From assembly GCA_038826135.1 (NCBI GenBank), contig JAWBON010000003.1:5690-37689 (forward strand): DNA of 32,000 bases, given 5' to 3'. Source of the DNA: Candidatus Odinarchaeota archaeon. Its GTDB lineage: Archaea; Asgardarchaeota; Odinarchaeia; Odinarchaeales; Odinarchaeaceae. Under the pieces are notes generated by a model. That model was given only the letters and a program-made list of their open reading frames with translations. It made no database searches and was not told the DNA's origin. Of this stretch, positions 1,623-29,341 are shown in pieces. Numbering within the stretch: the first letter of the stretch is position 1; every line of letters begins with the position of its first letter. A program made the translations under genes and the position numbers.

Positions 1623-1754
1623 GCGGGGGTTCCCAAGCCAGGTCTAAGGGGCAGGACTGAGGAAGGATAAACCTTTAGATCTCCTGTGGACTTCCTTTCA
1701 AAAAAGGAGGCAGAGCGTAGGCCTTCATGGGTTCAAATCCCATCCCCCGCACCA
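1623..1754 (+). tRNA. tRNA-Leu(GAG) with two BHB introns (1663-1680 at 37/38; 1690-1715 in the variable arm), encoded CCA
   Basis: Acceptor stem GCGGGGG/CCCCCGC, T arm ATGGG-TTCAAAT-CCCAT, anticodon stem CAGGA/TCCTG with loop CT-GAG-G|C. After both introns are removed the variable arm GGC-GTAG-GCC forms; mature length 88 nt. Confidence 0.93.
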
Positions 1755-1787
1755 TCCATTTCGAGATTTATACTGTTTTAGAATTGT

Positions 1788-2639
1788 TTAGAATCTTTTT
1801 ACGTACCTGTGGCAGTATGGTATTCCACCGTTTTTATTATAGTAGTCTTGATGGTATTCCTCTGCGGGCCAGAATTCTGTAGCTTTAGTGATTTTTGTAG
1901 CGACTTTGTAGCCCTGATTTTTAAGCTGTTCGATTATTTTCTCAGCGGTTTTCTTTTGCTCCTCATTCAGATAGAATATTTCAGATCTGTATTGTTCACC
2001 TATATCCGGTCCCTGATGATTAATTTGGGTTGGATCGTGGATTTCAAAAAATATTTTTACAAGTTGCTCATATGTGACAGTATTCGGATCGAAAACAACT
2101 TCTACGGCTTCAGCGTGACCAGTGTTACCCTTACAAACATCGCGGTAAGAGGGGTTTTCTTTATGACCGCCAGTGTATCCGACCCTGGTTGAAATAACTC
2201 CTTTAACTTTTTTAAAAAAGTATTCAACCCCCCAAAAACAGCCTCCTGCGAATATTGCTTTTTCAATTTTTTCACTTTTATCTTCAGGTATAAAATTTAA
2301 TGAGATTGAATTAACACAGTGCCTGACATTTTTATCCGTAAACCCTTCGCCTGTAAATATATGGCCTAGATGCGCGCCGCATTTTGCACAAACAATCTCT
2401 GTTCTAATACCGTCTTGATCAAGCTGTTTACTTACCGCTCCAGGGATTTCATCATCAAAACTAGGCCATCCGCAACCTGAATCAAACTTATCGGATGAAC
2501 GGTAGAGGGGGGCGCCACAGCGCTTACAAGTATAAACCCCTTTCTCCCAGTGAAAAGTGTATTTACCAGTGAAAGGTGGCTCTGTGCCTTTGTAAATTAT
2601 TACGCGCTCCTCTTCTTCGGTTAATTTATTATAATTCAA
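1788..2639 (-). CDS. msrAB: Bifunctional peptide methionine sulfoxide reductase (MsrB-MsrA fusion)
   Basis: N-terminal MsrB (CKRCGAPLY, KFDSGCGWPSF, RHCVNS) and C-terminal MsrA (AGGCFWGVE, GHAEAVEV, AEEYHQDY). Confidence 0.95.
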   Translation of the reverse strand: MNYNKLTEEEERVIIYKGTEPPFTGKYTFHWEKGVYTCKRCGAPLYRSSDKFDSGCGWPSFDDEIPGAVSKQLDQDGIRTEIVCAKCGAHLGHIFTGEGFTDKNVRHCVNSISLNFIPEDKSEKIEKAIFAGGCFWGVEYFFKKVKGVISTRVGYTGGHKENPSYRDVCKGNTGHAEAVEVVFDPNTVTYEQLVKIFFEIHDPTQINHQGPDIGEQYRSEIFYLNEEQKKTAEKIIEQLKNQGYKVATKITKATEFWPAEEYHQDYYNKNGGIPYCHRYVKRF

Positions 2640-2725
2640 TTCTAAACACCCTTAGATTATTCAATATTCTAAATAGGTGTAAGCATTTATTAACTAATTA
2701 GTATAAATTAAGTATGGTGATACCC

Positions 2726-3229
2726 ATGGATGTGGGGAAAATTTTGAAACTTAAAATAATCTCGTCTGATTTTAAAGATGTTGGTAAAGTTAAATCGCTT
2801 GAAGTGCAAAATTGGAATGTAGTTGGGATTAGAGCTGAATTATCTAAAGAGTTGACTACACGATTCTTCGGTAAATCCACCTTCCGGTTAATAGGTGAGG
2901 AGACTCTTTTCCTAATTAAACTCGTTAAGAATATCGGTGATGTGATAGCGTTAAATGTAACAGGCCCGGATCTGATGGTTTACTCGAAACTCGGGCAGAT
3001 ATTCGTAAACGGCTGTGACGTTTTAAAAAAGGAAGTTATGTCCGTTAAAGATATCGATAAATTTACTAAAAAAATCGATGAACAGATAAAGGAGTTTTTA
3101 AAAGAGGTTGAAACGATCGCAGGGGTTTCGGATCAGACACGGATTAGTATAACTAGCGATGTTAATATTCTTAGAGAGAATTTAATTAACAGCGCTTATG
3201 AACAATTAGGTGTGGAACAGAAAAAATAA
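2726..3229 (+). CDS. PRC-barrel-like protein with C-terminal helical extension
   Basis: N-terminal pattern KIISSDFKDVGKVKSLEV..WNVVGI resembles a PRC barrel. GGTGA precedes the ATG at 2726, so this start is preferred over 2714. Confidence 0.55.
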   Translation: MDVGKILKLKIISSDFKDVGKVKSLEVQNWNVVGIRAELSKELTTRFFGKSTFRLIGEETLFLIKLVKNIGDVIALNVTGPDLMVYSKLGQIFVNGCDVLKKEVMSVKDIDKFTKKIDEQIKEFLKEVETIAGVSDQTRISITSDVNILRENLINSAYEQLGVEQKK

Positions 3230-3290
3230 TAATTCAAGTATTGCTAAGTATACTCAGCTAATAAAAATAAAAAAAAGTTAAGTTTTCTAA

Positions 3291-3641
3291 TTAAGCTAGT
3301 TTTCTGACCAAACTGATTATTCCAGCGATAATTATTAATATCGCACCAATAGAGCCACCGAAAATTAATGAGAGAATACCTAATATTATTAACATCACCC
3401 AATTGTGTTCCACTTTAGGCCCTAAATTAATAACACCGTAGCTGGTCAGCACTATTATACCGAATATTATAACTAGTATACCCCATACTATGTTTAATAA
3501 ACCGCCGGCGGGGATTAAAGGTCCGATCAATATAGCGGATAGCGCGATTAGTAGTACGCCGAAAATTATACTGAGAATCGCCCCGATGACCGCCAGAACT
3601 CTCACTATATCGTCTTTATCTTTAGATTTTTTAGTTGGCAT
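3291..3641 (-). CDS. Small multi-pass membrane protein
   Basis: 116 aa, about four Gly/Ile/Leu-rich hydrophobic segments, basic N-terminus. Confidence 0.7.
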   Translation of the reverse strand: MPTKKSKDKDDIVRVLAVIGAILSIIFGVLLIALSAILIGPLIPAGGLLNIVWGILVIIFGIIVLTSYGVINLGPKVEHNWVMLIILGILSLIFGGSIGAILIIIAGIISLVRKLA

Positions 3642-3762
3642 AAGATATATTATAAGGGATGTTTAATATAAAGATTACATTTATAATACGATAAAATTTA
3701 ATTATTGAACGTTTAACTTTATAAATAAAAAGTAGATATTATTCAGCTTATATTTTAGAAGT

Positions 3763-3867
3763 GGCTCGGTAGCTCAGCCCGGTAGAGCGGCAGCATGGTA
3801 AGTTGTCGGTCTTGTATGCATTGCATACGAGGATGAATCGTGGGTTCAATTCCCACCCGAGCCTCCA
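3763..3867 (+). tRNA. tRNA-Thr(GGT) with a 28-nt BHB-type intron at 46/47 (3810-3837), encoded CCA
   Basis: Acceptor stem GGCTCGG/CCGAGCC, U73, D arm GCTC/GAGC, anticodon loop AT-GGT-AA, T arm GTGGG-TTCAATT-CCCAC. The intron contains a 9-bp hairpin. Confidence 0.92.
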
Positions 3868-3901
3868 TTTTTATATTTTAACTGTTAAATTTATAAGTTA
3901 G

Positions 3902-3931
3902 TATTACTAAGTAATATATTATTTAGTAATA
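3902..3931. promoter_or_regulatory. Inverted repeat, candidate operator upstream of the RHH gene
   Basis: TATTACTAA (3902-3910) and TTAGTAATA (3923-3931), plus a third AGTAATA half-site at 3910-3916. Confidence 0.4.
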
Positions 3932-3943
3932 TTGAGGGCGACT

Positions 3944-4405
3944 ATGGAAGAACTTATTAGAATCTCCCTGACAATACCTAAAAATATACTCCAAAAACTA
4001 GATGAAGTATCCCCTAACCGGAGTTCATATATCACACAATTATTAAAAGAGAATTTTCAAGCGAAAAAAAGCCAGCAAATAATATTAGAAGTAAACTCGA
4101 GAAAAACACTAAAGCAATACCTTGATCCTAAAAACAAATATCATATAGATATTAACAAGCTCGCACCTGTTTTAGCAGTCTCAATAAAAACTGATTCAAG
4201 CGGACCGAAAATCAGTTTATTATCCTTCAAATATGGATCACCGATATTATTTAAAATTGACCTGTCACCGATTAAATATGATGAAGAATTAATTAATGAC
4301 AGTGGTGAATGGCTAAGGCTAATAGATGTTTACAGTGCTGACGGTGAGTTTATAATGAATTTATTGAATAACAATATTTTGATAGTTGATGAAATAAAGT
4401 TATAA
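3944..4405 (+). CDS. CopG/RHH-domain protein with unknown C-terminal domain
   Basis: N-terminal IRISLTIPKNILQKLDEVSPNRSSYITQLLKE fits a ribbon-helix-helix. GAGGG precedes the ATG at 3944. Confidence 0.6.
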   Translation: MEELIRISLTIPKNILQKLDEVSPNRSSYITQLLKENFQAKKSQQIILEVNSRKTLKQYLDPKNKYHIDINKLAPVLAVSIKTDSSGPKISLLSFKYGSPILFKIDLSPIKYDEELINDSGEWLRLIDVYSADGEFIMNLLNNNILIVDEIKL

Positions 4406-5326
4406 TATTCTCCTATCTTTCAAAGTAGTTAAGTATTTGAAGTACTCCCAGCGGTTATCTATGAACTTCTGAATAGCAGTTATTTCATTCCTACTTAGTT
4501 TAGAGAATCTTCCTTGCAGCGATAGATATGTTTCCAAGTTTTTCCTGTTTTTAGGGTCTAAGAGTTTTAAACTTGGACCCGTCAGATTAAATTTTGAGTC
4601 TTCCACCTCGAATAATGGCCACATCCCAGTGTCAACCGCTAGTTTAGATATTGTTACAGTGTATTTAGAGTCAAAACGCCATCCAGACGGGCAGGGAGTT
4701 AAAACATGTATGAAACGGAAACCTTGGTGCTTCTTTGCTTTTAAAACTTTATTATAGAGATCGATAGGGTAACCTGAGACTCCTGTGGCTAAATAGCTAG
4801 GTTCATGAGCTAAAATTATTGAGATAATATCTTTTTTCCTCTCTCTTTTACCTAAAAAGGGTGTTGTTGTAGTTAAAGCCCCGAACGGTGTTGCACCGCT
4901 TGTCTGTATGCCGGTATTCATATACGCCTCGTTATCATAACAGAAATATATCATGTCGGTGTTTCTCTCCGCCGCGCCGCTTAGAGCCTGCAAACCTATG
5001 TCAAATGTAGCCCCATCACCAGCCCAAACGATTACATTTAAGTTTTCAAATTTATTTTTAGCCTTTAAACCTTCTACTATGCCACAGCCGAAGGCTGCAG
5101 CTGAGTCAAAAGCCGAGTTTAACACAGGAATGTCTAAAGCAGATTTAGGATACATGCCTTGTATTATAGATGAGCAGCCGGCAGGGATGACTATTATTGT
5201 ATTTTTCCCTAGAGCTTTAAGAACATGTCTTAGTGCAAGAGCGGCACCACAACCTGCACAGGCCGCGTGACCTGGTAAAAGATGTTCATCTAAGCTGAGT
5301 TCTAATATTTTAGCCAATAAACTCAC
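4400..5326 (-). CDS. porB: 2-oxoacid:ferredoxin oxidoreductase beta subunit (POR/VOR type)
   Basis: GHAACAGCG, TPP-binding GDGATFDIG..YDNEAYMNTG, LTPCPSGW. Substrate specificity cannot be determined from sequence here. Confidence 0.92.
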   Translation of the reverse strand: MSLLAKILELSLDEHLLPGHAACAGCGAALALRHVLKALGKNTIIVIPAGCSSIIQGMYPKSALDIPVLNSAFDSAAAFGCGIVEGLKAKNKFENLNVIVWAGDGATFDIGLQALSGAAERNTDMIYFCYDNEAYMNTGIQTSGATPFGALTTTTPFLGKRERKKDIISIILAHEPSYLATGVSGYPIDLYNKVLKAKKHQGFRFIHVLTPCPSGWRFDSKYTVTISKLAVDTGMWPLFEVEDSKFNLTGPSLKLLDPKNRKNLETYLSLQGRFSKLSRNEITAIQKFIDNRWEYFKYLTTLKDRRIL

Positions 5327-6524
5327 CTTTTAAACCTATCCAGTAAATGTCTCTTTCCCTGATTTTATCAGTTAAATGTTTGTAGGAGTCTTTGACAAAT
5401 TCCATTATATCCCTTGTAGTTACATCCATTCCTCCTAAACCGGCAACAGCGGAGATTATCTTAATATTATCTTTTAATTCAAGTAGGGACGATCTAACCT
5501 CCCAAGAGAGGATCCCCCCTATTCCTGGCGATAGATCCCGGTCTATTATGAAAACCGCTTTTTTCGATTTACATATTTTCTTGAGCTCCTGATGAGGGAA
5601 CGGTCGGAGAGAACGCACTTTCAATGCACCTATTTTGTAACCTTCTTTTCTAAGCCGGTCTACAGCACTGATAGTTTGGTTGAATAATGTTCCGATAGAT
5701 ATTAAAATCAGGTCTGCGTCGCTACAATTATACTCGTATGTTAACCCTCCATATACTCTCCCCACTAATTTCTCGAATTCCAACTGAATTTTTTTGAAAA
5801 TACTGCCAGCTGTTATCATCGCTTTATGAGCTAAATATCGGTGTTTATAATATAAGTGGCCATGAGTAGCCGGTGATACAACATTTCCGTATGTAAAAGG
5901 CTTATTTACATCGAGTAGGATTTGATTAAATGATGAAGGGTTATACTCTGGTAAAAACTCATCTACCAGGTTTTGATCAATAAGCCTAACAGGAGTGGCT
6001 GTATGAGATAGAAGGAAGCCGTCCATGCAAAGCATTACGGGCAATTGGACTTGAGATGATTCAGCCAGCTTAAAACACTGAAACACTAAATCATATAATT
6101 CCTGGTTTGTAGAAGCGTAAATTTGGATCCATCCTGAGTCTCTTTCCAACATGGAGTCCGTGTGTTCCACCCAAATGTTCCAAGGAGGGGCTAGGGTTCT
6201 GTTAACATTAGTCATTACAATAGGTAGTCTGGACGCTGCCGCCCAGTAAAGCAATTCATGCATTAAAACAAGACCTTGAGAGGATGTTGCGGTATATACT
6301 CTACAACCAGTTGAAGCAGCACCTATACAAACCGCCATAGCACTACGTTCACCTTCAACCCGAATGAATCGTGATTTTAACATGCCTGTCTCCACCATTG
6401 CAGCTAAAGCTTCAACTATCTGTGTCTGCGGGGTTATAGGGTAAGCTGCGATGACATCTACATTAGACTGTTTTACTGCTTCGGCCACTGCGTAGTTTCC
6501 TGTTAAAATCCTAATGTCTGACAA
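5310..6524 (-). CDS. porA: 2-oxoacid:ferredoxin oxidoreductase alpha subunit
   Basis: AAYPITPQT, TATSSQGL, LRPFP and GLGG motifs; operon context. Confidence 0.93.
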   Translation of the reverse strand: MSDIRILTGNYAVAEAVKQSNVDVIAAYPITPQTQIVEALAAMVETGMLKSRFIRVEGERSAMAVCIGAASTGCRVYTATSSQGLVLMHELLYWAAASRLPIVMTNVNRTLAPPWNIWVEHTDSMLERDSGWIQIYASTNQELYDLVFQCFKLAESSQVQLPVMLCMDGFLLSHTATPVRLIDQNLVDEFLPEYNPSSFNQILLDVNKPFTYGNVVSPATHGHLYYKHRYLAHKAMITAGSIFKKIQLEFEKLVGRVYGGLTYEYNCSDADLILISIGTLFNQTISAVDRLRKEGYKIGALKVRSLRPFPHQELKKICKSKKAVFIIDRDLSPGIGGILSWEVRSSLLELKDNIKIISAVAGLGGMDVTTRDIMEFVKDSYKHLTDKIRERDIYWIGLKGEFIG

Positions 6525-6782
6525 TTATTCCCTCTCCATAATGATACATTTTTTAGGGCATTCCTGGGCGCATATACCGCATCCTTTACAGTAATCATAG
6601 TCAACTTTTGGAACGGTTTCTTTTTTAATTATTATAGCGGCGTCCGGGCAGTAGAGCCAACAATTATAGCATTTTACGCACTTTGAATAATCGATTATAG
6701 GCTTGCTGTGACGCCAGCTGCCTGTTTTGCCGAATGCTCCTTTCCCAGGTTTTGAAATCGGGATAATGCTTTTTTTACTCAT
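6525..6782 (-). CDS. porD: 2-oxoacid:ferredoxin oxidoreductase delta subunit (2x[4Fe-4S])
   Basis: TGSWR, then CVKCYNCWLYCP and CKGCGICAQECP. Confidence 0.93.
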   Translation of the reverse strand: MSKKSIIPISKPGKGAFGKTGSWRHSKPIIDYSKCVKCYNCWLYCPDAAIIIKKETVPKVDYDYCKGCGICAQECPKKCIIMERE

Positions 6783-6826
6783 AATATCACAATGTATGAT
6801 ATCATACTATTATGGAATATACTATA

Positions 6827-7396
6827 CTATAACATCTGACATTTTTCATAAGCTAATTTAGTAGCTTCAATATTTTTATCTAGGAATTCACCACTCCAAG
6901 TCTCTTCAACAACGGTGAGAATGTTTTTTAGTTTTACGAGTCCGGTGGCTTTTGAAAAGGCACCTAACATGCAGGTGTTAACAACAGGCAGACCTGCCAC
7001 AGTCAAATTAATATTAAATGCAATAGTTGTAGCATCTACGATAAAGACCTTCAGATCCTTCACCGAAGCCGCATTTATATCTGAACAGGGGGAATTAACT
7101 ATCAGATAGCCGCCCGTATTAATTTCCTTATCAGGGTGAACTATACTTAGAAGACTCCAATCAAGAACTATGAAAATATCAGCAGAATATATCGAAGTAA
7201 ACTCATGAATGGCGGTTCCCCCTATCCTAGTATAGGCTTTCACAGGGGCTCCCCGCCTTTCCGCTCCGAAAAAGGGAAATGATTGAACATCTTTAAAACC
7301 TTCAATAAAAGCGGCTTTAGCTAGAATATTTGACGCTGTTACTGCTCCTTGACCGCCTCTACCCAACCAAGTTATATCCCATTGCCGAATAGACAT
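6827..7396 (-). CDS. porC: 2-oxoacid:ferredoxin oxidoreductase gamma subunit
   Basis: GRGGQGAVTA, FFGAERRGAPV and VNTCMLGA motifs. Confidence 0.93.
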   Translation of the reverse strand: MSIRQWDITWLGRGGQGAVTASNILAKAAFIEGFKDVQSFPFFGAERRGAPVKAYTRIGGTAIHEFTSIYSADIFIVLDWSLLSIVHPDKEINTGGYLIVNSPCSDINAASVKDLKVFIVDATTIAFNINLTVAGLPVVNTCMLGAFSKATGLVKLKNILTVVEETWSGEFLDKNIEATKLAYEKCQML

Positions 7397-7569
7397 TTAC
7401 AACACCGGGTGCCTCACTAGAATTTTAGTTTTAGAGCAATATTAAATTTAGCTTATTTTCAACAAGAGGGGTTGGCGCAAAGTTTTTAACCTAATTTGAC
7501 GATAAAGGAAATACTCCTAGCTGTTAGCGGGGGTAGTTCAGTATATCAAAAATTAGAGGTGAAACTGTT

Positions 7570-7866
7570 ATGTCAGATGCAAATGTAGTATACGTTGGAA
7601 ATAAGCCAGTTATGAACTATGTTTTAGCTTGTGTTACCCAATTAAACCAGGGTGCTGATGAAATTATAGTAAAGGCTCGTGGTAGAGCTATTAGCAGAGC
7701 TGTTGATGTCGCAGAGATTTTAAAGAACAGATTTATGACGTCGGTAGAAGTCAAGGATATAAAAATAAGCACAGAACAGATCAACACAGCCGAGGGCGGC
7801 CAAGCTAACGTAAGTGCTATCGAGATAGCCTTAAGCGGTAAAGCTATCCCAAAAACTAAGAAATAA
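7570..7866 (+). CDS. albA: DNA/RNA-binding protein Alba
   Basis: [35 protein letters not shown]; GAGGTG RBS. Confidence 0.97.
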
Positions 7867-7940
7867 ATAAATTTTTTATTTTTATTATTTTTCAATGTAG
7901 AAAAAGGGAAATGCGGTCGCCTTTACTAACCATATATGAC

Positions 7941-7964: not shown

Positions 7965-8513
7965 TTAACCTAAATTGTAACCTATTTTTCTCACTAAGTC
8001 TTTTCTGCCTTGTCTTTGAGTATCGTCCTCGATCTTGTTAACAGACTGCCCGTCTACGACCCCCAGCACGGCCCTGCCTACGGAGGAGCCGAGCGGGGTC
8101 TCAGCTAAAATTACCTTACATTTATTAGCGGTCCCTACATATAAATTGACTACGCCGTAGCTAAGCTTTAAGGCGTTCATTAAATTTATAGGCCAAGCGC
8201 CTTTAAACTGTATTACAAACACGTGACTTGCACCTATGTTTAGTGCGTTCCGCGCCACTATTTTTTTTAAGGTTTCATCATTACCTTCTACACGGGTTAG
8301 CCTTGGATCAGCCTCATTCATCGCACATGCAAACCTAACTTGACCGTCAGTAGTCCCCGGGACGGCTGCTTGAACAATCCGGTAAAGTTCGTCAACCATT
8401 TTAATAGAGAAAATGGGGTTTTAATCCAGTGATTAAAAATTCCCCTGCCCTATTATTATCTGGTGGTCAGGTTCTTTTTCTATATCTACACTAATTAATT
8501 TAATTTCACTCAT
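7965..8513 (-). CDS. DUF355 / adenosine-specific kinase family protein, two exons (8513-8440 and 8412-7965), 173 aa after splicing
   Basis: Exon 2 has NEADPRLTRVEGND, IGASHVFVI, WPIN, TAN and LGVVDG motifs of the family. Exon 1 (GAAGGTGA RBS, ATG at 8513) encodes MSEIKLISVDIEKEPDHQIIIGQG. The spliced junction GQGNFSIKMVDEL aligns to the family's N-terminal GQxxF...VxDL region as I recall it. Confidence 0.88.
8413..8439 (-). other. 27-nt BHB intron in a protein-coding gene
   Basis: Minus strand reads GGGG-AAT-TTTTAATC-ACTG-GATTAAAA-CCCC-ATT. It contains two in-frame TAA codons, and excision at the standard BHB sites restores the frame. Confidence 0.85.
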
Positions 8514-8569
8514 ATGCATTCACCTTCTTTTTTAATAGAATATTTTATTAACTTGAAAATTATAAAAAT

Positions 8570-11428: not shown

Positions 11429-12970
11429 ATGAAAATGCAAACAATAAATCAAATGTTAGAAGACCTTATAGAGAGAGGCTATCAATTAACACCAGCAGCT
11501 TTTAAAATTATAAATGAATCTGAAAACCCGCTTGAAACAATCAGCCTACTAATAAACAAAATTTCGGCAACCTCTGGTTTACCCCCTGTTTTAGATGTAG
11601 AGGTTATTTCCTCTTTAATAAATACTCAAAAGGATATTTCACCCCCCAGACCGGAATTAAATCATAATGGTCAGATAGCTACTAGTTTAAAACCTTTACC
11701 GGTAGCCCGAGATGCGGTTGAAAAAATAAAAATATTATTCGACCCTACCGGCAAATCATACTCCACAGGGAGAACAGAGGAGTTCATTAAATACTTTCAG
11801 AACAGGTACATGAAAATTAAAAAAATTTTCCTCTCAAGGAAGGATATGAACGATGTTATAACAATAGATGGTTTAAGCAGAACAAATTCAACGGAGGACA
11901 AAATCAAATTAATAGCTATAGTAATGGATAAAAAAGCTACGGGAAAGGGGAATATTCTACTAGAATTAGAGGATCCGACAGGTACAATTAAAGCAATCGT
12001 CAACAAGAATAACAGAGAACTATTTTTAAAAGCAAATAACATATTATTAGACCAGGTGTTGTGCTTCGAAGGCACAGTCAGCCAGTCGAACTTATTCTTT
12101 ATTGAAGAAATATATTGGCCGAATACGTCAACTCAGCATAAAAGTAAAAGCGCAGGGGAACAGATATTTGTAGGCTTACTTTCAGACATGCATATTGGGA
12201 GTAAACAGTTTTTAGAAAAATATTTTTTAAAGTTTATATCCTGGTTAAAAGGGGAAATAGGAAGTGAGAAGCAGAGAGAGATAGCCAGCCGATTGAAATA
12301 TATTATAATCGCTGGCGACTTAGTTGATGGAATAGGGGTTTACCCTCATCAAGAAGAAGATCTCGCCATTATAGATGTTACCGAGCAATATGAAAAAGCC
12401 AGATCACTACTAGAACAAATACCCGAATACATAAATATCATTATCAGCCCCGGTAATCACGATGCGAGTCGGCAAGCTTTACCCCAGCCAGCGATACCTG
12501 AAAAATATGCTAAAGGATTATACGATATGAAAAATGTAGTAATGGTTGGGAACCCCGCATTAATCCAAATATGTGAACATAATTTTCTCGTATACCATGG
12601 AAGAAGTTTAGATGATTTAGCAGCGTCAATCCAAGGTGCAACACCACTTAACCCCACTAGTTTAATGAGGGAGTTACTTGTTGGACGACATTTAGCTCCA
12701 GAGTTCGGAAATAGAACACCTATATCCCCGGAGTTCGAGGACTACTTGGTTATAGAAAATGAACCTGATGTCTTCCATGCAGGGCATTTACATATAACTG
12801 GGGTTGAAACATATCGGAATATAGCATTAGTAAATTCCGGTACCTGGCAAAGTCAAACTACATATCAAAAGAACATGGGGATAATTCCAACACCTTGCAA
12901 AATTCCATTATATGATTTGAGGGAGAACAAAATCCATATAATCGATTTTATGGAATACAACGGAGGATAA
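11429..12970 (+). CDS. polB: DNA polymerase D small subunit DP1
   Basis: OB-fold (LEDPTG) followed by phosphoesterase motifs SDMHIGS, AGDLVDG, PGNHDA, YHG, HAGHLH and NSGTWQ. Confidence 0.96.
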   Translation: MKMQTINQMLEDLIERGYQLTPAAFKIINESENPLETISLLINKISATSGLPPVLDVEVISSLINTQKDISPPRPELNHNGQIATSLKPLPVARDAVEKIKILFDPTGKSYSTGRTEEFIKYFQNRYMKIKKIFLSRKDMNDVITIDGLSRTNSTEDKIKLIAIVMDKKATGKGNILLELEDPTGTIKAIVNKNNRELFLKANNILLDQVLCFEGTVSQSNLFFIEEIYWPNTSTQHKSKSAGEQIFVGLLSDMHIGSKQFLEKYFLKFISWLKGEIGSEKQREIASRLKYIIIAGDLVDGIGVYPHQEEDLAIIDVTEQYEKARSLLEQIPEYINIIISPGNHDASRQALPQPAIPEKYAKGLYDMKNVVMVGNPALIQICEHNFLVYHGRSLDDLAASIQGATPLNPTSLMRELLVGRHLAPEFGNRTPISPEFEDYLVIENEPDVFHAGHLHITGVETYRNIALVNSGTWQSQTTYQKNMGIIPTPCKIPLYDLRENKIHIIDFMEYNGG

Positions 12971-12988
12971 TATCGTATATAATCTATG

Positions 12989-14227
12989 TTACGCGCCTAT
13001 CTTTTTTAAAGAAGACTCTAGTGAAAATATTTTTTTCAGCCGAAAATCTTTTTCCAAACAGTTTCTCACCAAGTCCGGTGCCACAGCTAATTTAATTTTT
13101 TTAGTGCGACCATAACGGCCTTTATTAATTATCGCCGCATTTATTAAACCATGCATGTCTAGCTCACTTATTAGATCGCTTATTCTCCTCTGGGTTAAAT
13201 TATCCACTTTTATTATCTCAGTTAATTTTAGGTAGATGTTAAAAATGTCGCCTGTAATAATTTCAGGCGTCTTGTTTTTCTCCAATAAGTATACACTAAG
13301 CAAAACTATTTTTGATTGAATTGGCAGAGATTTTAAGAGTTCAGATACAATATCATGTTCATATTGAAACATGCTTTTTCTAACATGATCCTCAGTTACT
13401 CGTTGCGCGCCCTCCCTTTCAGCGAATTCCCCGGCGACCCTAAGCAAGTCGATCGCCCGTCTAGCGTCACCATGCTCCCTCGCAGCTAAAGCCGCGCATA
13501 AATTAATAACTCCAGGTTCAATAACCCCGCGGTTAAAACCCATCTCCGCTCGATTCCTCAAAATATCTTGAAGCTCTAAAGCAGTGTAAGGCGGGAATAC
13601 AAGCTCCTCCTCACTTAGACTACTAAGAACCCGGGGGTCAAGATAATCCTTAAATTTAAGATCGTTAGTGATGCCTACAATATTAACCCTAGCGCGTTTT
13701 AAACTAGAGTTTATCCTAGTTAAATTATAAAGGATATCGGTTCCGCTTTTTTCAACTAGTTTATCAACCTCGTCAAGAACCACGATTAAAAGTTGAGCTT
13801 CAACATCAAGCTTATCCTTAAACCTGTAATAAACTTCATCAGTCGGCAACCCTGTAAACGGTATTTCAACATTGACAGACTCGGCTAAACGCGCCAGCAC
13901 CCGGTAATTAGTATCGATAATTCTACAATTAATATAGGAGCTATTAACTTTCAGTTTGCTTTCAATTCTTAACGCGCGCTCCGATAGTTTTTCTATAACA
14001 TACTTAACAACAGCTGTTTTACCAGTTCCTGTTTTACCGTAAATAAATAAATTTGAGGGGGTCCCGCCTTTCAAAGCAGATGCGAGAATCATGCCTACCC
14101 GAGTGATCTGTTGTTCCCTATGCGGAAGCTCGCTTGGTATGTAGGTGGGCCGCATCACATCCCTGTTTTTAAAAATATTGCTCATTAAAATACGATCGAA
14201 TGTGGCTTCCAATGTGTTATCGCTCAT
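12989..14227 (-). CDS. cdc6: Orc1/Cdc6 replication initiator (origin-proximal)
   Basis: Y-P-LPHRE, Walker A GKTGTGKT, Walker B VLDEVD, HGDARRAIDLLR, winged-helix GRYGRT. Confidence 0.97.
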   Translation of the reverse strand: MSDNTLEATFDRILMSNIFKNRDVMRPTYIPSELPHREQQITRVGMILASALKGGTPSNLFIYGKTGTGKTAVVKYVIEKLSERALRIESKLKVNSSYINCRIIDTNYRVLARLAESVNVEIPFTGLPTDEVYYRFKDKLDVEAQLLIVVLDEVDKLVEKSGTDILYNLTRINSSLKRARVNIVGITNDLKFKDYLDPRVLSSLSEEELVFPPYTALELQDILRNRAEMGFNRGVIEPGVINLCAALAAREHGDARRAIDLLRVAGEFAEREGAQRVTEDHVRKSMFQYEHDIVSELLKSLPIQSKIVLLSVYLLEKNKTPEIITGDIFNIYLKLTEIIKVDNLTQRRISDLISELDMHGLINAAIINKGRYGRTKKIKLAVAPDLVRNCLEKDFRLKKIFSLESSLKKIGA

Positions 14228-22318: not shown

Positions 22319-23299
22319 TTGGTGTTAAATATGGTGGAAAGCATTTGCCCTGAATGTGGAGGCCATATTGTTATAACCACCGGCGAGTATGTTTGCTCTA
22401 TTTGCGGGCTAGTGTTAGATAAACTATTCCAGCAGCCTTTAGAAGCTCTAGATAATACTAACCCTAAGTCAAGCGGCGCCCTCGGAGAGAGGCTTCACAT
22501 AGTGGATGGGCTTGGCAGTTATATAGACTACCATAACTCGCATAGATTATCAGATTTAAAATTATTGAGAGTCTCTGAAAGAAGGAGAAATCTACTTCAA
22601 AGATTAAAAAACACACATAACTTTTACGCGAGATATACTAACCATCAAACAGAGTACCGTATACTTAGAATACTCAACCAGATAACAGCTATCCTCAGTC
22701 TACCTGCGTATGTAAGGGATAACGCTGCATACATTTACAGGAAGATAAAAAACAAATACCAAGCTAAAATTGTAAACCATATATCTCTAATCGCGGTGTG
22801 TATTCTATTATCGATTAGAGAGCAGGGTTATGTTACCCCGTTAACTTTAACAGAGCTATGCACCGCATTTCAAAAACTAGGTCACAGAGTAAACGAGCGT
22901 CTAATAACTAGAACCGCCCTTAAACTTAGAATTAACTTAGGCTATAAAGTGAAAGTGAGGAAAAGTGAAGATTATTTGACGCGGCTTATATCATTAATCT
23001 CTAACAATGAAAAAATAAAGAGTAAAATCTTAGAGCAAAAAGAGGATATTTACTGGCATAGACTCAACTTGAAGGCGATAGATCTCTTAAATAAGATCCC
23101 TAAAATCGAGCGGGGGGGAAGACACCCATACGTCTTCGCAGCGTCGATTATTTACGCTGCTGAAAGATCTCTCGCCTATGAGGAAAACAGGCAACCACTT
23201 CTAACTCAAAAAGAAGTCGCGAACATATTAGGGGTGGCGGAATACAGCATTCGTGATCACTATCGATATATAAACAACTATGCTGCTAATTTAAGCTGA
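22319..23299 (+). CDS. tfb: Divergent TFB/TFIIB paralog (likely start 22331)
   Basis: Zn ribbon CPECGG..GEYVCSICGLV, two cyclin-like repeats, C-terminal TQKEVANILGVAEYSIR. Confidence 0.82.
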   Translation: MVLNMVESICPECGGHIVITTGEYVCSICGLVLDKLFQQPLEALDNTNPKSSGALGERLHIVDGLGSYIDYHNSHRLSDLKLLRVSERRRNLLQRLKNTHNFYARYTNHQTEYRILRILNQITAILSLPAYVRDNAAYIYRKIKNKYQAKIVNHISLIAVCILLSIREQGYVTPLTLTELCTAFQKLGHRVNERLITRTALKLRINLGYKVKVRKSEDYLTRLISLISNNEKIKSKILEQKEDIYWHRLNLKAIDLLNKIPKIERGGRHPYVFAASIIYAAERSLAYEENRQPLLTQKEVANILGVAEYSIRDHYRYINNYAANLS

Positions 23300-23525
23300 T
23301 GGATATGACTAGTTGTGAAATAAATAAAACGATAATTATTGACGCCACTATGTAAGTAATACTTTCTAAAATTCCGCTTCCCCTTACTAAAATTAAAGCA
23401 GTAGGGATACTTAACGCGTAGACGCCGGCTAAAAAAATATGGCTTACAATCTCATTACTAATAGATAACACTAAAATTCCCGTAAACCAAATTAGGTAAA
23501 TAACAACTATTAGTAAAATAAGCAA
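23286..23525 (-). CDS. Small membrane protein
   Basis: 79 aa with three hydrophobic segments; directly follows the 131-aa gene. Confidence 0.5.
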   Translation of the reverse strand: MLILLIVVIYLIWFTGILVLSISNEIVSHIFLAGVYALSIPTALILVRGSGILESITYIVASIIIVLFISQLVISISLN

Positions 23526-23529
23526 TCAA

Positions 23530-23925
23530 CTACACCTCTAAAAATCTTATTACCAATATGCCATCATCACAGGATACGCTAAGTAAAAACTCTCCCGAAC
23601 CATTCGGCGGCGTAAGATTAACAATTAAAGGATAGGTTTGCTTTAAAATATAGTTATCCCCATCCCCATACTGGCAATAAACAGTTTTATCCAGACTCCA
23701 GACACTTATATTTGGCGGTATGTTGACGCGGTCCAAGTAAACCCCGCCGCGCTCTAGTACTTCTTTAGCAGCGTAATCTATTTGACTCATCAACACAGAA
23801 GCGTTCTGGTAGTTCTCAGCTTGACCGATAGTATTTAATACTAAATTAATAAGAGGCACCCCTATCGCAATACATATTGAAAGAGAAAGTGTTAGGCCGA
23901 CCGCCCTCTCAAGCGTTACATGCAT
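23530..23925 (-). CDS. Pilin-like / minor pilin protein
   Basis: N-terminal TLE followed by a long hydrophobic helix and a soluble domain; GGTGG RBS; divergent from the pilus operon. Confidence 0.55.
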   Translation of the reverse strand: MHVTLERAVGLTLSLSICIAIGVPLINLVLNTIGQAENYQNASVLMSQIDYAAKEVLERGGVYLDRVNIPPNISVWSLDKTVYCQYGDGDNYILKQTYPLIVNLTPPNGSGEFLLSVSCDDGILVIRFLEV

Positions 23926-23992
23926 AACTTAGCCCACCATTTATTCAGAGCGGTGTATTTAAACACTGCTAAACATAAATTACCGGATAAGT

Positions 23993-24658
23993 ATGAAGAT
24001 AGTTATTTTTCTCTCAGCTCAGGGAGGTGTAGGGCGTTCACAAATAATAAGCAGCCTAGCATATTTATTATCAAATTTAGGTCGAAAAGTAGGCGTGATC
24101 GATTTATGCGGGAACAGTATTGAAGAACTGCTGAAAACAATTAACTCAATCACACCAGTTTTAGTAGCCGGCATAAACAATTACAAACCTCAATCTCTTA
24201 TAGAAAAATGGGAGAAGGAAGGGGTTGATTTCACATTAGTCAACCACCTCTCCGACTATTCTGAGATAAAAACAGAAAGTATTCTAATAGTGACAACACC
24301 TCTAAGATTAAGTTTACTAAGAAACAGAAGATTAGCCTATAATATTAGAAATAAAAACCCTCAGGCTAAGATTAGCGTAGTTTTAAACAAAGTCGGTGAA
24401 TGTGAAAACTACGAGTACAAGAACATCATAGTTGAAAAAATTCTCGGCGCACCTGTCATTCAACAAATCCCATATGACCTAGATTTTATCAGATGTGAAC
24501 AATTGGGCACTCCACTACCAAAACTTGCAGGTAAAACACCGACCGTGATATCATTATTAGAATTACTTAGCCTTGTCTGTGAAATCCAAATACCTGTTAA
24601 CATACTCAAATCTGAAAAACACTCCCGGTTAAAATTAAATAAGAGGTGTGAAAGATGA
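23993..24658 (+). CDS. MinD/ParA-like (TadZ/CpaE-like) P-loop protein with degenerate Walker A
   Basis: SAQGGVGRS instead of xKGGVGK[T/S]; KVGVIDL, VVLNKV and IPYD match the MinD fold. Confidence 0.75.
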   Translation: MKIVIFLSAQGGVGRSQIISSLAYLLSNLGRKVGVIDLCGNSIEELLKTINSITPVLVAGINNYKPQSLIEKWEKEGVDFTLVNHLSDYSEIKTESILIVTTPLRLSLLRNRRLAYNIRNKNPQAKISVVLNKVGECENYEYKNIIVEKILGAPVIQQIPYDLDFIRCEQLGTPLPKLAGKTPTVISLLELLSLVCEIQIPVNILKSEKHSRLKLNKRCER

Positions 24659-24996
24659 CTGTTAAAAAAAGTATAGAAGATTTAGTAATCATCTTTAAAG
24701 AAAGCGGGCTTGAAGAGAAAACTATTATGGTAATTCTACGTAAACTCGGGTTGCCTGAAACCCAGGTTCGAAACACACTATTAAAACTATCCCTTCTTGA
24801 CAGACTAAACAGTGAAACATGTAATTCTACGCCTTTAACTAGTGGAGTGGATGATGTGAAAAACTGTGAACCCCCTACTGTACGCATAGACGAGTTTAAT
24901 AATATTCTAAAAAAGAATAACCTCCTGCTCGAACAATTACTTGAAATAATATCTGAGAAACCGAGCACCCCTGAACGTGAAAACACCAGTAGCTGA
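24655..24996 (+). CDS. Hypothetical protein with a short C-terminal coiled coil
   Basis: 113 aa; 4-nt ATGA overlap with the MinD-like gene; FNNILKKNNLLLEQLLEII heptads. Confidence 0.6.
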   Translation: MTVKKSIEDLVIIFKESGLEEKTIMVILRKLGLPETQVRNTLLKLSLLDRLNSETCNSTPLTSGVDDVKNCEPPTVRIDEFNNILKKNNLLLEQLLEIISEKPSTPERENTSS

Positions 24997-25153
24997 TTTT
25001 TTATATATTTATTCTAATTAATTTACGGGTTTAGTTACGCGTTTAAACACGTTTCCAATATCCAAAATTAACCAGGAGAAAACAGAAATCCACGACCTTG
25101 TAATCAGAGAGTTCTCCAATCTCAAACTAGGCGAAGCCTGTATTGGAAAAATT

Positions 25154-27214
25154 TTGCAGAGAATTTTTAGTATAACCGCAAGCGCTGAAATATCCTGGCT
25201 TAGAATTCAAGTTAAACTAGCTGATGCGACTATTCTCATACCTGAAGAATTCCAGAAAACCATCATAGACTTATATAAAAAAATCTCCAACAGTTATACA
25301 GCTCTAACATCAATGGATATATTCAAAAATATGTGCGGGGCAGGCTACTCCTGTCCGAATATTAAGCATCTGTTAAAAAACGAATTAATAAACAACTCGA
25401 TCACAAAAGATCCTTTAAAATATTATTTAGAACTGGTAATCGATTTAGAAGCTTTAAAATCTGTGAAAAAAGAAAAATGCAATAAGTGTTTAAAGAAGGT
25501 TTTAAAAAATCTTAATAAAATTAAAGAAAAACTTGAACAGACAAACCTGATCAGAGATTATTTGAAACTGCCCTCCGATATAAAAATTAAACCATTAGAA
25601 TTAATATACGAGCGATTAATAGTATTCGAAATCATACCGGATAAAGAACCATCTGACAACTTGACACCCACGTCCACCCGCCCCCTCTTAGACTCTTATA
25701 TTATAGGACCATATCAGATAAGCATATACCCCCCCAGCGAGGTGTCAAACGAGTATTTATACCAGGCTACACCGCTTTTACCAGAATGCGATTTCAATTT
25801 AACCGTAAAACAGTTTCAAAAATATATAGATAACCTAAACTATTTCTCTAAAAACGTTGATGAATATTACCCCCCTGAACAATTAATCGAGATAAGGAAA
25901 AAACAGGCTGAATCATTTGTTAAAACAAATCTGTCAAACAGTTCTCCTAAAACTGATAAAATTCTGATAGAATATTTAAGCTATCAGACAACCGCGCTGA
26001 AACCTTTAATACCTTACTTAATCGATGATCAAATCGAAGAAATATTTATCGACAACCCTTATTCTAGAATATATCTTGACCACCGTCGACTCGGTAGATG
26101 CATAACATCTCAATTACTAGATAAAAGCGGCTTCGATAAACTTGTTACATATTTAAGAGCTACTACAGGTCTCAGATTAGATGCGAAAAACCCTTCACTG
26201 AAGACAGAGCTTTTAACCAGCGCGTTTCATATAAGAATCTCCGTTGACATAAGTCCCCTAGCAGCCGACTGCTTCCATGTGGATATTAGAAAACTTAGAA
26301 GAAAATATTTTTCAATAACCGAGCTTATTGCGAATAACACATTAACAGCCGAAGCCGCAGCGTACTTGTATTTTTGCATGACCCGTAAAAAAAGTATTTT
26401 AGTATTAGGCAGGCCAGGAGATGGGAAAACCACCATTATTAATGCTTTAGACGGTTTAACCCCCCCATTCTGGCGTAAGATAACCGTTGAAGATGTTGTT
26501 GAGAGCGTATCACAAACAGGTGTAAGACATCAAACCAGGTTTCAAGTGGATCCGTTGGAGAGCGGAAATATAAGAGGGAGTAAAGCTAAGGAAATAGTTA
26601 AACTCCTCCACCGCTCCCCAGACTACCTGCTTATCTCAGAGATACAAACAGCGGAAGATAGTAAAGCTCTATTTCACGCTCTATCCGCAGGATTAAGCGG
26701 CTTATTCACATGCCATGGAAATAGTATAGAAGACCTCCTACTCAGATGGAGTGTCCACCATAAAATCCCACCTATCTCATTTCAAGAATTAGATCTGCTA
26801 ATACATGTTAAAAAATTCGACTTATACGAAACCCCCACTAGAAAAATTGTGAGAATAGCCGAGATAAATAATATACCTGAAAAATTATTTTCAAACTTAA
26901 CACCCGAAATCCAAAACATATTTACATGGGATATTCACGAAGGTAAACTTGTTTTAAAAACTGATTTATACGAGACTCCAACGCTTCAAAAAATCAAACA
27001 TTACGAGAATTTAAGTAAAGAGCAATTTTACAATGAGATAAACACCTACAGGATAATATTTGAATTACTAGCTCGGAAACAACTCTACTCCATTGAAGAG
27101 AACACTTTATTCTTCAGTAAATTATACTCGCTCATACATAAAATGAAACAGATTGAAAAAACCATCGACTGGGATGAAGTATTATTATGGGTTCAACGGG
27201 AAATAGGAGGTTAA
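25154..27214 (+). CDS. VirB11/CpaF(TadA)-family pilus assembly ATPase
   Basis: GRPGDGKTT Walker A, ITVED Asp box, HRSPDYLLISEIQ Walker B, TCHGNS His box; long N-terminal region. The frame is open from 25022. Confidence 0.9.
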   Translation: MQRIFSITASAEISWLRIQVKLADATILIPEEFQKTIIDLYKKISNSYTALTSMDIFKNMCGAGYSCPNIKHLLKNELINNSITKDPLKYYLELVIDLEALKSVKKEKCNKCLKKVLKNLNKIKEKLEQTNLIRDYLKLPSDIKIKPLELIYERLIVFEIIPDKEPSDNLTPTSTRPLLDSYIIGPYQISIYPPSEVSNEYLYQATPLLPECDFNLTVKQFQKYIDNLNYFSKNVDEYYPPEQLIEIRKKQAESFVKTNLSNSSPKTDKILIEYLSYQTTALKPLIPYLIDDQIEEIFIDNPYSRIYLDHRRLGRCITSQLLDKSGFDKLVTYLRATTGLRLDAKNPSLKTELLTSAFHIRISVDISPLAADCFHVDIRKLRRKYFSITELIANNTLTAEAAAYLYFCMTRKKSILVLGRPGDGKTTIINALDGLTPPFWRKITVEDVVESVSQTGVRHQTRFQVDPLESGNIRGSKAKEIVKLLHRSPDYLLISEIQTAEDSKALFHALSAGLSGLFTCHGNSIEDLLLRWSVHHKIPPISFQELDLLIHVKKFDLYETPTRKIVRIAEINNIPEKLFSNLTPEIQNIFTWDIHEGKLVLKTDLYETPTLQKIKHYENLSKEQFYNEINTYRIIFELLARKQLYSIEENTLFFSKLYSLIHKMKQIEKTIDWDEVLLWVQREIGG

Positions 27215-27216
27215 CA

Positions 27217-28038
27217 ATGCTATACACTATTTTAGCTTTATATTTATCTAAAATACCCTTATTCAAAAAACTAGGCTCACAGATAATATCAAACAGACTA
27301 ACCTCCGCATGCGTCTACTACCAGGACACCTACAATCTTAAACCTGAAGAAGTAGCTGCAAGCTGCATCGGCATAATTTTTATTACTGCACTCATAGGGG
27401 CGGGCGTTTTCATAACATACCGCTTGTTAATAATCCCCCCCATCACATCGATTATAGCAATCCTAGGAGCCGCGCTCTTCTATTATAAGATCATTGAAGA
27501 ATACGAGGGTGAAGCTAGAAAAATAGCTAAATACGTGGATCCTATAACTCAAGACTTCATATTCGCGCTTAAATCATCCTCATCAATATTTAACGCTATA
27601 AAATATGTTGCAAAAGCAGATTACCCTATAATCTCTGATAAATTTAAAGAAATAATATATAAGATAAATTTAGGCGAGAACCCCACTCTACTATTAGAAG
27701 AATTCATAGAAAAACAGCCGTCAAAAACATTAAGATACAATCTTCTATCTCTAATAAAAAATCAGGAACTAGACTTTTCATATGAAAATATACTAGGAGT
27801 TGAATCGCAGCGAACTCTAAGGGAAGAATACGAGAATTTTACAATGCAGCTTGAAAATAAAATAATGATCGCCGCTGCATCAAGCATTTTCCTACCGTTA
27901 ATAATAGGATTAGGTTTAATATTCTGGGGGTTCAGTGAATCCCCGATTTTTCTAATACTGATCCCCTTACACTTATTATTAAGTGTTCTTTTAAAAAAGA
28001 AATTGTTAAAACCGAGAGATGAGGTTTTTGAAAATTAA
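27217..28038 (+). CDS. TadB-like (T2SS-F domain) membrane platform protein
   Basis: TM pair, then AKADYPIISDKFKEII..INLGENP..LLEEF, then C-terminal TMs. GGAGG precedes the ATG at 27217. Confidence 0.78.
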   Translation: MLYTILALYLSKIPLFKKLGSQIISNRLTSACVYYQDTYNLKPEEVAASCIGIIFITALIGAGVFITYRLLIIPPITSIIAILGAALFYYKIIEEYEGEARKIAKYVDPITQDFIFALKSSSSIFNAIKYVAKADYPIISDKFKEIIYKINLGENPTLLLEEFIEKQPSKTLRYNLLSLIKNQELDFSYENILGVESQRTLREEYENFTMQLENKIMIAAASSIFLPLIIGLGLIFWGFSESPIFLILIPLHLLLSVLLKKKLLKPRDEVFEN

Positions 28039-28762
28039 CAGTAAATTAAATAAACTTGTAAACCCGACTGGTAAGAAGCGGATAGGTGAATTATTCGAAG
28101 TAGAGGATTTTCTAATACTTTTATCAAAAAACTTGTTAAATAATGTCAGCCCGGAGCTGGCTATGAAATTAGCTGTCAACCAGTTTAAAGGCGATTTAAA
28201 ACCAGTTTTTCAGGAGGCTGTAGAGGGCCTTTACACCGGTAGTAAATGCTTGAAGGATGCGGTTGAACAAATAATAAACTCATTATATAACCAGCAATCC
28301 AAACAGCTACTCCGCTATTTAATGGATCTTATAGACTACGATGCTAAAAAAAGAGCTCAAACAGTTATTAAAACACTCTACCGGTTAAAAGAAAACCAGC
28401 AATTATACTATAGACGACAAAGTATTTTGAAAGCTCAAGAATTTAAAATAAAATTCTTAGTAAATATTATGAGTATAGTGCTAGGAATGGTTTGCTCGCT
28501 AAGCCCGTGGTTTTCAATAACCTCCCTTCTCATAGAACTCGGTAACAGCGTCAACCCGTTCAACATTCAGATAAACCTCCACTCCGCACCCTATGCTTTC
28601 ATAACTTTCCTGTTAATATCAATTTTAAACGCGCACATACTTTACAACACTGTAAAAATCGAGCATGAAATATTATTCACATTAATAGCCCCGCTCCTAT
28701 TCTTAACCGCATATATCTCAGGTAGCATAATACTGTCAACAATTCTACAAGGCTGGGTTTAA
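28019..28762 (+). CDS. TadC-like membrane platform protein
   Basis: VSPELAMK helical T2SS-F-like domain followed by three TMs; downstream of the TadB-like gene. Confidence 0.7.
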   Translation: MRFLKINSKLNKLVNPTGKKRIGELFEVEDFLILLSKNLLNNVSPELAMKLAVNQFKGDLKPVFQEAVEGLYTGSKCLKDAVEQIINSLYNQQSKQLLRYLMDLIDYDAKKRAQTVIKTLYRLKENQQLYYRRQSILKAQEFKIKFLVNIMSIVLGMVCSLSPWFSITSLLIELGNSVNPFNIQINLHSAPYAFITFLLISILNAHILYNTVKIEHEILFTLIAPLLFLTAYISGSIILSTILQGWV

Positions 28763-28796
28763 ATAATCCCGAATATACTAACAAAGGGCTTAAAAT

Positions 28797-28982
28797 ATGA
28801 AGTTCATTAAAAAACTACTAAAAGATCGAGGGGGCTCCCCTCTAGTTGAAGAGGGGCTTTTAGTAGGCTTAGCAATCCTAGCAATAGCGCTTCTAATAAT
28901 ACTGGTTATAAATATATTAAACTGGGCGGGTGTAAACATAGACCAGTTAATCTCAAATATCGGAAGCCTTCTACCGTTTTAA
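28797..28982 (+). CDS. Short Flp-like type IV pilin with class III signal peptide
   Basis: MKFIKKLLKDRGG|SPLVEEGLL followed by a hydrophobic helix: basic leader, Gly at -1, Glu at +5; about 48 aa mature. Confidence 0.8.
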   Translation: MKFIKKLLKDRGGSPLVEEGLLVGLAILAIALLIILVINILNWAGVNIDQLISNIGSLLPF

Positions 28983-29222
28983 AACATTCAGCTGTAAAAG
29001 GCAGCCCCTTGCAAAACCCGCGCATTTAATTTAGATTTAAAACTTGTATAATTCTATCCCTAAATTTTTCGTTATAATGAAGATCTTTTTTAAGAATTTG
29101 ATATATTACTTCGTCGTCAACGGTAAAAACATTCATATTAGCTAATTTCATTTTTGAGAATTTAAATATAATATTCTAAAAAGCGAATATTATGTAATAA
29201 AAATACTAATTAACTTGGTTTA

Positions 29223-29341
29223 TGGTGCTCCGGTCGGGATTTGAACCCGAGTGTCCCCTTATTTTTAGTAATCTAGGGGGCGACTGGGCAGGTTTTTATT
29301 CCTTGAGCCCCTGATGCTTGACCGGACTACACCACCGGAGC
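29223..29341 (-). tRNA. tRNA-Glu(CTC) with two BHB introns (29284-29304 at 34/35; 29253-29272 at 45/46), encoded CCA
   Basis: GCTCCGG/CCGGAGC acceptor stem and Glu-type D arm. After splicing, the anticodon arm is AGGGG-CTCTCGC-CCCCT and the variable loop is AGAC; mature length 78 nt. Confidence 0.9.

Follow-up and report, generated by a model that had tools for sequence, protein, structure and literature searches.

Bulge-helix-bulge introns in tRNA genes and protein-coding genes of an Odinarchaeia genome and their predicted removal by the tRNA-splicing pathway

A short coding intron of the bulge-helix-bulge (BHB) kind is known from the cbf5 pre-mRNA of Crenarchaeota (Watanabe 2002; Yoshinari 2006; Yokobori 2009, PMC2738675), where a heteromeric tRNA splicing endonuclease (EndA) acts, the reading frame is restored and splicing has been shown experimentally. 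As of 2020, cbf5 was the sole reported archaeal coding gene with a BHB intron, to which Haloferax volcanii adds one site in a 5' untranslated region (UTR) (PMC7714728). In Thermoproteales and in the Asgard lineages Atabeyarchaeia and Freyarchaeia most tRNA genes are interrupted, often twice and at non-canonical positions with BHB boundaries, and such multi-intron genes are missed or miscalled by standard annotators (Sugahara 2008; PMC11291895; bioRxiv 10.64898/2026.10.13.758758). Here we describe a stretch of 32 kb from contig JAWBON010000003.1 of an Odinarchaeia genome (the window, whose first letter is position 1), in which three tRNA genes and the gene of an adenosine-specific kinase carry six introns with BHB motifs, together with interrupted coding genes elsewhere in the same genome. 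We put the probability that the motifs in the window are ordinary archaeal BHB introns, removed by the tRNA-splicing pathway, at roughly 0.85.

The putative coding introns resemble that of cbf5 in being short and in restoring the frame upon excision, and differ in that they occur in Odinarchaeia (Asgard), in at least six genes other than cbf5, and are known from sequence comparison, whereas splicing of crenarchaeal cbf5 rests on experiment. The cbf5 gene of the present genome (contig C2:27118-27456, minus strand, loci L068/L069) is one uninterrupted frame of 331 amino acids (aa). The HVO_1309 mRNA of Haloferax volcanii (PMC7714728) is likewise a substrate of the tRNA splicing endonuclease, but its site lies in the 5' UTR and the enzyme is of the alpha'2 type, while the Odinarchaeia introns interrupt coding sequence. 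A full-text search of the literature found no report of coding-region BHB introns in Asgard archaea, and measured against the literature searched, the proposed set of spliced protein genes extends a known kind of intron in a new and noteworthy way. Already published, and so not new, are the load of tRNA introns and, in Asgard archaea, an (alpha-beta)2 EndA with its specificity loop: heavy, non-canonical loads have been described (PMC11291895; bioRxiv 10.64898/2026.10.13.758758), and the 2026 preprint reports that most of its genomes have two EndA paralogues, in line with (alpha-beta)2; its text contains neither the word 'Odin' nor the word 'mRNA' (bioRxiv 10.64898/2026.10.13.758758).

The kinase gene is organised as follows.

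8513-7965, minus strand: adenosine-specific-kinase gene, made up of exon 1, an intron and exon 2
8440..8513, minus strand: kinase exon 1, 24 codons plus 2 nucleotides (nt) from an ATG at 8513, with an alternative upstream ATG at 8519
8413..8439, minus strand: kinase mRNA intron, 27 nt, strict hBHBh' motif, with two in-frame TAA codons
7965..8412, minus strand: kinase exon 2, with a Pfam Adenosine_kin match from profile position 22 of 154

Since the Adenosine_kin match starts at profile position 22, the open reading frame (ORF) at 7965-8399 on the minus strand lacks its N-terminus. Joining the exons gives the junction IIGQGNFSIK, as compared with IIGQSHFIK in the uninterrupted homologues inspected from more distant Asgard genomes, and restores the GQ-x-x-F motif that is conserved in them. 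In the more distant Asgard genomes inspected the insert is absent and the protein reads straight through. The close relatives compared are six genomes, three from the same genus and three from a sister family; being few and related, they offer a small number of independent compensatory events. Together with the present genome they make seven genomes of two families with an insert at the same place, of 27, 31, 32, 30, 34, 39 and 34 nt (0, 1, 2, 0, 1, 0 and 1 modulo 3). In four of the seven the length is not a multiple of three, so that only excision at the RNA level would keep the kinase frame there. Exon 1 is kept in the six relatives, with changes that by eye are mostly synonymous, and it matches the N-terminus of the uninterrupted homologues. 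The intron has the central helix GGGG/CCCC, the bulges AA|U and AU|U, an inner stem of 8 base pairs (bp) and an outer helix between the exons (1+6 bp, one mismatch), and this motif is the minimum-energy fold at both 37 and 75 C. According to RNAalifold the central helix is invariant except for one G-U pair, and four inner-stem pairs have changed on both sides, from U-A to C-G. The profile gap at the N-terminus, the restored junction and the insert in seven genomes thus bear out the preliminary description, in which one mRNA of the window was interrupted by a BHB intron.

The kinase intron and the five tRNA introns share one geometry. All six have a central helix of 4 bp, with G-U allowed, and on either side of it a 3-nt bulge, one per strand, that would be cut behind its second base; the inner stems are of 3-9 bp, and Leu intron 2 fits in one of two registers. 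Re-pairing by sequence thereby upheld the earlier proposal of six BHB introns of this shape. Excision at the canonical bonds yields three cloverleaves, the restored kinase motif and, for two genes elsewhere in the genome, contiguous Amidase and TsaD profiles. Chance origin is excluded by homology rather than by motif counts, because the orthologues keep the exons and change the introns in a compensatory manner. The strict form, with both flanking helices of at least 2 bp, is found only in the Leu 37/38 intron and the mRNA intron, and the remaining four of the six motifs have an adjacent outer helix of 0-1 bp and are relaxed, hBH-like. It had been stated earlier that several motifs lack the outer helix and are of the HBh' type; the first part stands (four of six), while the label does not, as motifs without h' belong to the hBH type. 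In minimum-energy folding the mRNA intron and Glu intron 1 adopt the motif, and Glu intron 2 comes close to it.

Two of the tRNA genes, both with long inserts, were found by Rfam, and the third, on the minus strand, by ARAGORN; the introns were parsed by hand against the cloverleaf and then tested.

1623..1754, plus strand: tRNA-Leu(GAG) gene, two introns, encoded CCA, Rfam tRNA match of 38.1 bits, spliced form 88 nt
1663..1680, plus strand: Leu intron 1, 18 nt, canonical position 37/38, strict hBHBh' motif in the motif scan
1690..1715, plus strand: Leu intron 2, 26 nt, within the variable arm, of which 14 nt remain after excision in a clean cloverleaf
3763..3867, plus strand: tRNA-Thr(GGU) gene, encoded CCA, Rfam match of 52.7 bits with GGU in the anticodon loop, spliced fold Thr(GGU)
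3810..3837, plus strand: Thr intron, 28 nt, position 46/47; excision leaves the variable loop CGGUC
29223..29341, minus strand: tRNA-Glu(CUC) gene, two introns, encoded CCA, found by ARAGORN, spliced fold Glu(CUC)
29284..29304, minus strand: Glu intron 1, 21 nt, position 34/35, inside the anticodon
29253..29272, minus strand: Glu intron 2, 20 nt, position 45/46; excision leaves the 4-nt variable loop AGAC

All three tRNA genes of the window are thus interrupted, and four of their five introns lie at non-canonical positions, as had been described before. When the five segments are cut out, ARAGORN folds standard cloverleaves for Leu(GAG), Thr(GGU) and Glu(CUC). Within the genus the tRNA orthologues are 89-95% identical overall, with unchanged exons and the differences concentrated in the introns.

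The tRNA-Leu(GAG) orthologues in the three genomes of the same genus show 89-92% identity. Leu intron 1 has the central helix CUGA/UUAG, bulges GG|A and AU|C, an inner stem of 3 bp and, as its outer helix, the anticodon stem of 6 bp; its sequence differs among the orthologues and the flanking exons do not. Leu intron 2 has the central helix CUGU/GCAG, the 3' bulge AG|C and an outer helix of 1 bp, and its two registers give either an inner stem of 4 bp with a 3-nt 5' bulge or one of 7 bp with a 4-nt bulge. In the orthologues most of the inner stem is replaced, and GCGG stands in place of GCAG with the pairing retained. The two motifs of pre-tRNA-Leu share bases 41-43 and are mutually exclusive, which implies that splicing would be ordered.

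In tRNA-Thr(GGU), whose discriminator base is U, the intron forms the central helix UGUC/GAUG with bulges GG|U and AA|U, an inner stem of 9 bp and no outer helix. Orthologues have GGCG in place of GAUG as the 3' strand of the central helix, and both pair with UGUC; one inner-stem pair changes from G-C to A-U, again with the pairing kept. At the same site the paralogous Thr(CGU) is interrupted as well, and Thr(GGU) of the sister family has no insert at 46/47 (variable loop UGGUC) and carries its intron instead at 37/38.

Orthologues of tRNA-Glu(CUC) within the genus are 94-95% identical. Glu intron 1 has the central helix GGGC/GCCC, bulges UC|A and AG|U, an inner stem of 3 bp and an outer helix of 1 bp; its loop length differs among orthologues, and position 34/35 is interrupted by an intron in the sister family too. 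Glu intron 2 pairs CCCU with GGGG between bulges AG|A and AC|A, with an inner stem of 3 bp and no outer helix; the intronic second base of its 3' bulge is C, G or U among orthologues and the exon bases AC are fixed. The sister-family Glu gene has GGAC in the variable loop and no insert at 45/46. The predicted boundaries of the Thr 46/47 and Glu 45/46 introns are fixed by these sister-family genes, as they lack the insert there. In the minimum-energy fold of pre-tRNA-Glu the two strands of the anticodon stem are paired separately, each with a different one of the two introns. All three variable-region introns (1690-1715, 3810-3837 and 29253-29272) use positions 40-44, on the 3' strand of the anticodon stem, for their central helix, a feature in which they differ from the multi-intron systems of Thermoproteales, Atabeyarchaeia and Freyarchaeia.

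Automated callers misname such genes. The gene at 3763-3867 is called by ARAGORN as Asp(GUC) or as an unknown type with a 4-base anticodon, isotypes that we reject on the basis of the Rfam alignment and the spliced fold, both of which indicate Thr(GGU); in the unspliced Glu gene the anticodon loop reads CAA, a Leu anticodon. Genome-wide, the intron mode of ARAGORN returned 31 tRNA-like genes, 23 of them (23/31) with an intron call and 23 longer than 95 nt, and it missed Leu(GAG) of the window (1623-1751) entirely. This picture fits the under-detection published for Asgard genomes (bioRxiv 10.64898/2026.10.13.758758).

For the remainder of the genome, a scan coupled the BHB motif to an ORF-fusion test, with wrong bulge sizes as controls, and its hits were then filtered by homology (Pfam). 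Five further coding introns pass the homology filter.

gatA: 29-nt intron; Amidase profile split into 5-153 and 156-445, with a junction codon that gives the Ser of GSDTGG-S-VRQPA
kae1: 26-nt intron; TsaD profile split into 6-61 and 64-264, in the core domain
citG: 25-nt intron; the second exon begins at profile position 18
radical-SAM gene: 29-nt intron that splits the CxxxCxxC motif
gcvPA: 30-nt BHB intron with an in-frame TAG; excision restores TPYQAEASQG

Further frame-restoring BHB introns, which the preliminary description had expected a scan of the genome to reveal, are therefore present once homology is applied. The intron of gatA splits the amidase catalytic motif, and across the genus and the sister family both this intron and that of kae1 are conserved. 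The outer helix of kae1, formed between the exons, shows covariation at synonymous codon positions, with the pairs GGCCC/GGGCC, GGTCC/GGACC and GGACC/GGTCC. The introns of the three genes compared among relatives (the kinase, gatA and kae1) probably predate the divergence of the two families and have persisted, with covariation, ever since. UPF0147 has an in-frame TAA inside its Pfam match, and a quick scan that required an inner stem of at least 4 bp found no BHB around it. On contig C23 (L046, about 1042-1067, minus strand) a well-formed BHB-shaped hairpin of 26 nt, with the central helix GAGG/CCUC and an inner stem of 8 bp, separates two complete genes, one for a DeoC-family aldolase and one for a zinc alcohol dehydrogenase (ADH). 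The hairpin is probably intergenic in nature or serves as a processing site, and its excision would fuse the two genes in frame.

The Pfam family PF01974 matches the genome at three places, which correspond to two EndA paralogue genes. The alpha gene is spread over contigs C48:1-420 (minus strand, L003) and C72:2-274 (plus strand, L001), whose end sequences overlap by about 135 nt, as do the two open frames in sequence; this is an assembly break and not a split gene, and the two contigs can probably be joined. The joined alpha subunit, of about 188 aa, aligns end to end with the catalytic subunit 3P1Z_B of Aeropyrum pernix, with conservation of FAVY, IDHSPF and VRKKF, which hold the catalytic Tyr, His and Lys; 3AJV is a His-to-Ala mutant at the same catalytic His position. 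Its Crenarchaea-specific loop (CSL, or L1) reads GIRKPKVPEFDRP and aligns with DVEKPRGADFEGP of 3P1Z_B, placing a lysine on Lys44. The beta subunit, a 185-aa ORF on contig C45, has Ala at the catalytic His and retains Tyr and Lys in the alignment to 1A79. The (alpha-beta)2 EndA of A. pernix (PDB 3P1Z; PMC3241643) likewise has two subunits, the same alpha loop and triad, and a beta subunit lacking the catalytic His, while the Odinarchaeia beta is closest in sequence to the subunit of the Methanocaldococcus jannaschii homotetramer and the activity in the present genome is a predicted one.

The architecture read from these genes is (alpha-beta)2 with the CSL/L1 loop, presumably assembled as a heterotetramer, and by homology not that of a genome with a narrow-specificity EndA only. 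A broad-specificity endonuclease of either the (alpha-beta)2 or the epsilon2 type had been anticipated for this genome. The epsilon2 alternative was rejected, as the PF01974 matches include no single three-unit polypeptide, the two genes encode only about 185-190 aa each, and the match to 4FZ2 is weaker than those to (alpha-beta)2 subunits; the (alpha-beta)2 prediction agrees with the L1 loop and the Lys44 equivalent, which make broad specificity the expected property. Grafting of the Crenarchaea-specific loop into a narrow EndA confers broad specificity, and Lys44 is an RNA contact (PMC3241643). An (alpha-beta)2 EndA with L1 loop has been described for Asgard archaea including Odinarchaeota LCB_4 by Kaneta 2018 (PMC5829648), a study that uses both the hBH and the HBh' terms and in which hBH is not processed by an (alpha-beta)2 enzyme that lacks the L1 loop (PMC5829648). 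The kinase intron, being a strict motif, would by itself need no relaxed enzyme for mRNA splicing here, and the four tRNA motifs without outer helix would require one. A gene for the ligase RtcB is present. In this gene (contig C16:2586-5357, plus strand, L066/L067) the matches to Pfam profile positions 1-50 and 49-426 lie about 1.4 kb apart in a single frame of 995 aa, a gap that suggests an insertion of intein size in the gene of this RNA ligase.

On this basis we propose that a heterotetrameric (alpha-beta)2 EndA would cut after the second base of each 3-nt bulge, and that RtcB would then join the exons. In this Odinarchaeia lineage the pathway would handle a very heavy load of tRNA introns, many of them non-canonical and lacking the outer helix, and the same pathway appears to serve protein-coding transcripts, that of the kinase in the window and those of at least gatA, kae1, citG, the radical-SAM gene and gcvPA elsewhere, whose proteins would be full-length only after removal of introns of 25-30 nt. 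We infer that these RNAs are cut by EndA and spliced in the living cell. It also seems likely that Odinarchaeia depend on mRNA splicing by EndA and RtcB, and that this is a regular layer of gene expression, with six or seven genes at the least and the essential gatA and kae1 among them, and not a one-gene curiosity as in the case of cbf5.

Several observations weigh against this proposal. For the Thr and Leu introns, whose central helices are weak, minimum-energy folding fails to form these helices and is uninformative, and the motifs in the variable region compete with the upper part of the anticodon stem. The motif scan as such shows no enrichment: its strict form gave 13 hits as compared with 10-22 in the controls with wrong bulge sizes, and its loose form 607 'frame-restoring' hits as compared with 571-639, so that the motif alone cannot find spliced genes. 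Among the ten top hits tested, five proved by Pfam to be adjacent complete genes and not spliced genes (DeoC|ADH, NAD kinase|NOB1, luciferase-like|Pelota, NuoCD|NuoH and TldD|PmbA); a further hit, C33+ at 37 nt, is a candidate only. The suggestion that more 'truncated' or 'pseudogene' calls may be spliced mRNAs is supported by the five genes restored by excision. At the kinase site, contigs from two runs labelled metatranscriptomic, which are probably DNA, and from two DNA runs were compared; none of the contigs of the four runs bridges 8413-8439 in spliced form, and no run is recorded as RNA. In one DNA contig that covers the site the intron is present. These contigs count neither for nor against splicing. 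Lastly, the broad specificity of EndA is deduced by homology from one loop and one lysine, that is, from sequence.

The inserts might instead remain unspliced, the genes being pseudogenes or starting at a downstream ATG, with the upstream piece as a decaying remnant. In the present genome the ATG at 8399, 13 nt past the kinase intron, does open a 144-aa ORF that could be translated alone. A simple downstream start is nevertheless ruled out, because exon 1 is conserved as coding sequence through all seven genomes, in agreement with the N-terminus of the uninterrupted homologues, and the ATG past the intron is not conserved in the sister family, where it is absent. Decay into a pseudogene is also at odds with the covarying BHB pairs of the kinase and kae1, and with the splitting of the gatA catalytic motif and of the core domain of the essential kae1, both of which are kept across two families, and we regard this explanation as very unlikely. 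Translational bypass, by ribosome hopping, stop read-through or recoding, would leave the insert in the RNA; the kinase insert of this genome would suit it, with a length of 27 nt that is a multiple of three and a stable hairpin like those of bypass elements. The relatives' inserts of 31, 32 and 34 nt are not multiples of three, no take-off/landing codon pair was seen, the conserved features (4-bp helix, two 3-nt bulges, outer helix) match an EndA substrate exactly, and the identical geometry recurs in the tRNA introns of this genome, all of which makes bypass extremely unlikely.

A further explanation accepts cleavage of the motifs by EndA and gives it a role mainly in processing or regulation, such as decay or circular RNA, in place of frame restoration, or assigns the mRNA sites to another nuclease. 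Its precedent is the BHB site processed by the Haloferax EndA in a 5' UTR (PMC7714728), and the hairpin between the complete DeoC and ADH genes on C23, where splicing would have no obvious coding role, is in line with it. We nevertheless find it very unlikely, as excision at the canonical bonds restores conserved motifs exactly in six coding genes, and no other candidate nuclease was identified; regulation through the efficiency of splicing is compatible with intron removal by EndA and RtcB and is not an alternative to it.

If removal by EndA and RtcB is true for the coding genes, the machinery of tRNA splicing can act as a general mRNA-splicing system in a prokaryote, in a lineage that lies within the Asgard archaea, the closest relatives of eukaryotes. 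The list of coding cases, which for more than 20 years held cbf5 as its sole reported member, would lengthen and would include essential genes. Automated annotation will label such genes as truncated or as pseudogenes.

The source genome, that of a hot-spring archaeon, has a size of 1.26 Mb and a G+C content of 37%, is 93% complete and consists of 105 contigs. The nearest named relative of the adenosine-kinase gene is found in a 'Candidatus Odinarchaeia archaeon' metagenome-assembled genome, with a protein identity of 88%. In the window a gene for a DNA polymerase D small subunit (DP1-like) adjoins a full Cdc6/Orc1 gene at 11429-14227, and a second Cdc6 C-terminal fragment at 31735-31998 runs off the window end. 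The presence of these three genes suggests a replication-origin neighbourhood.

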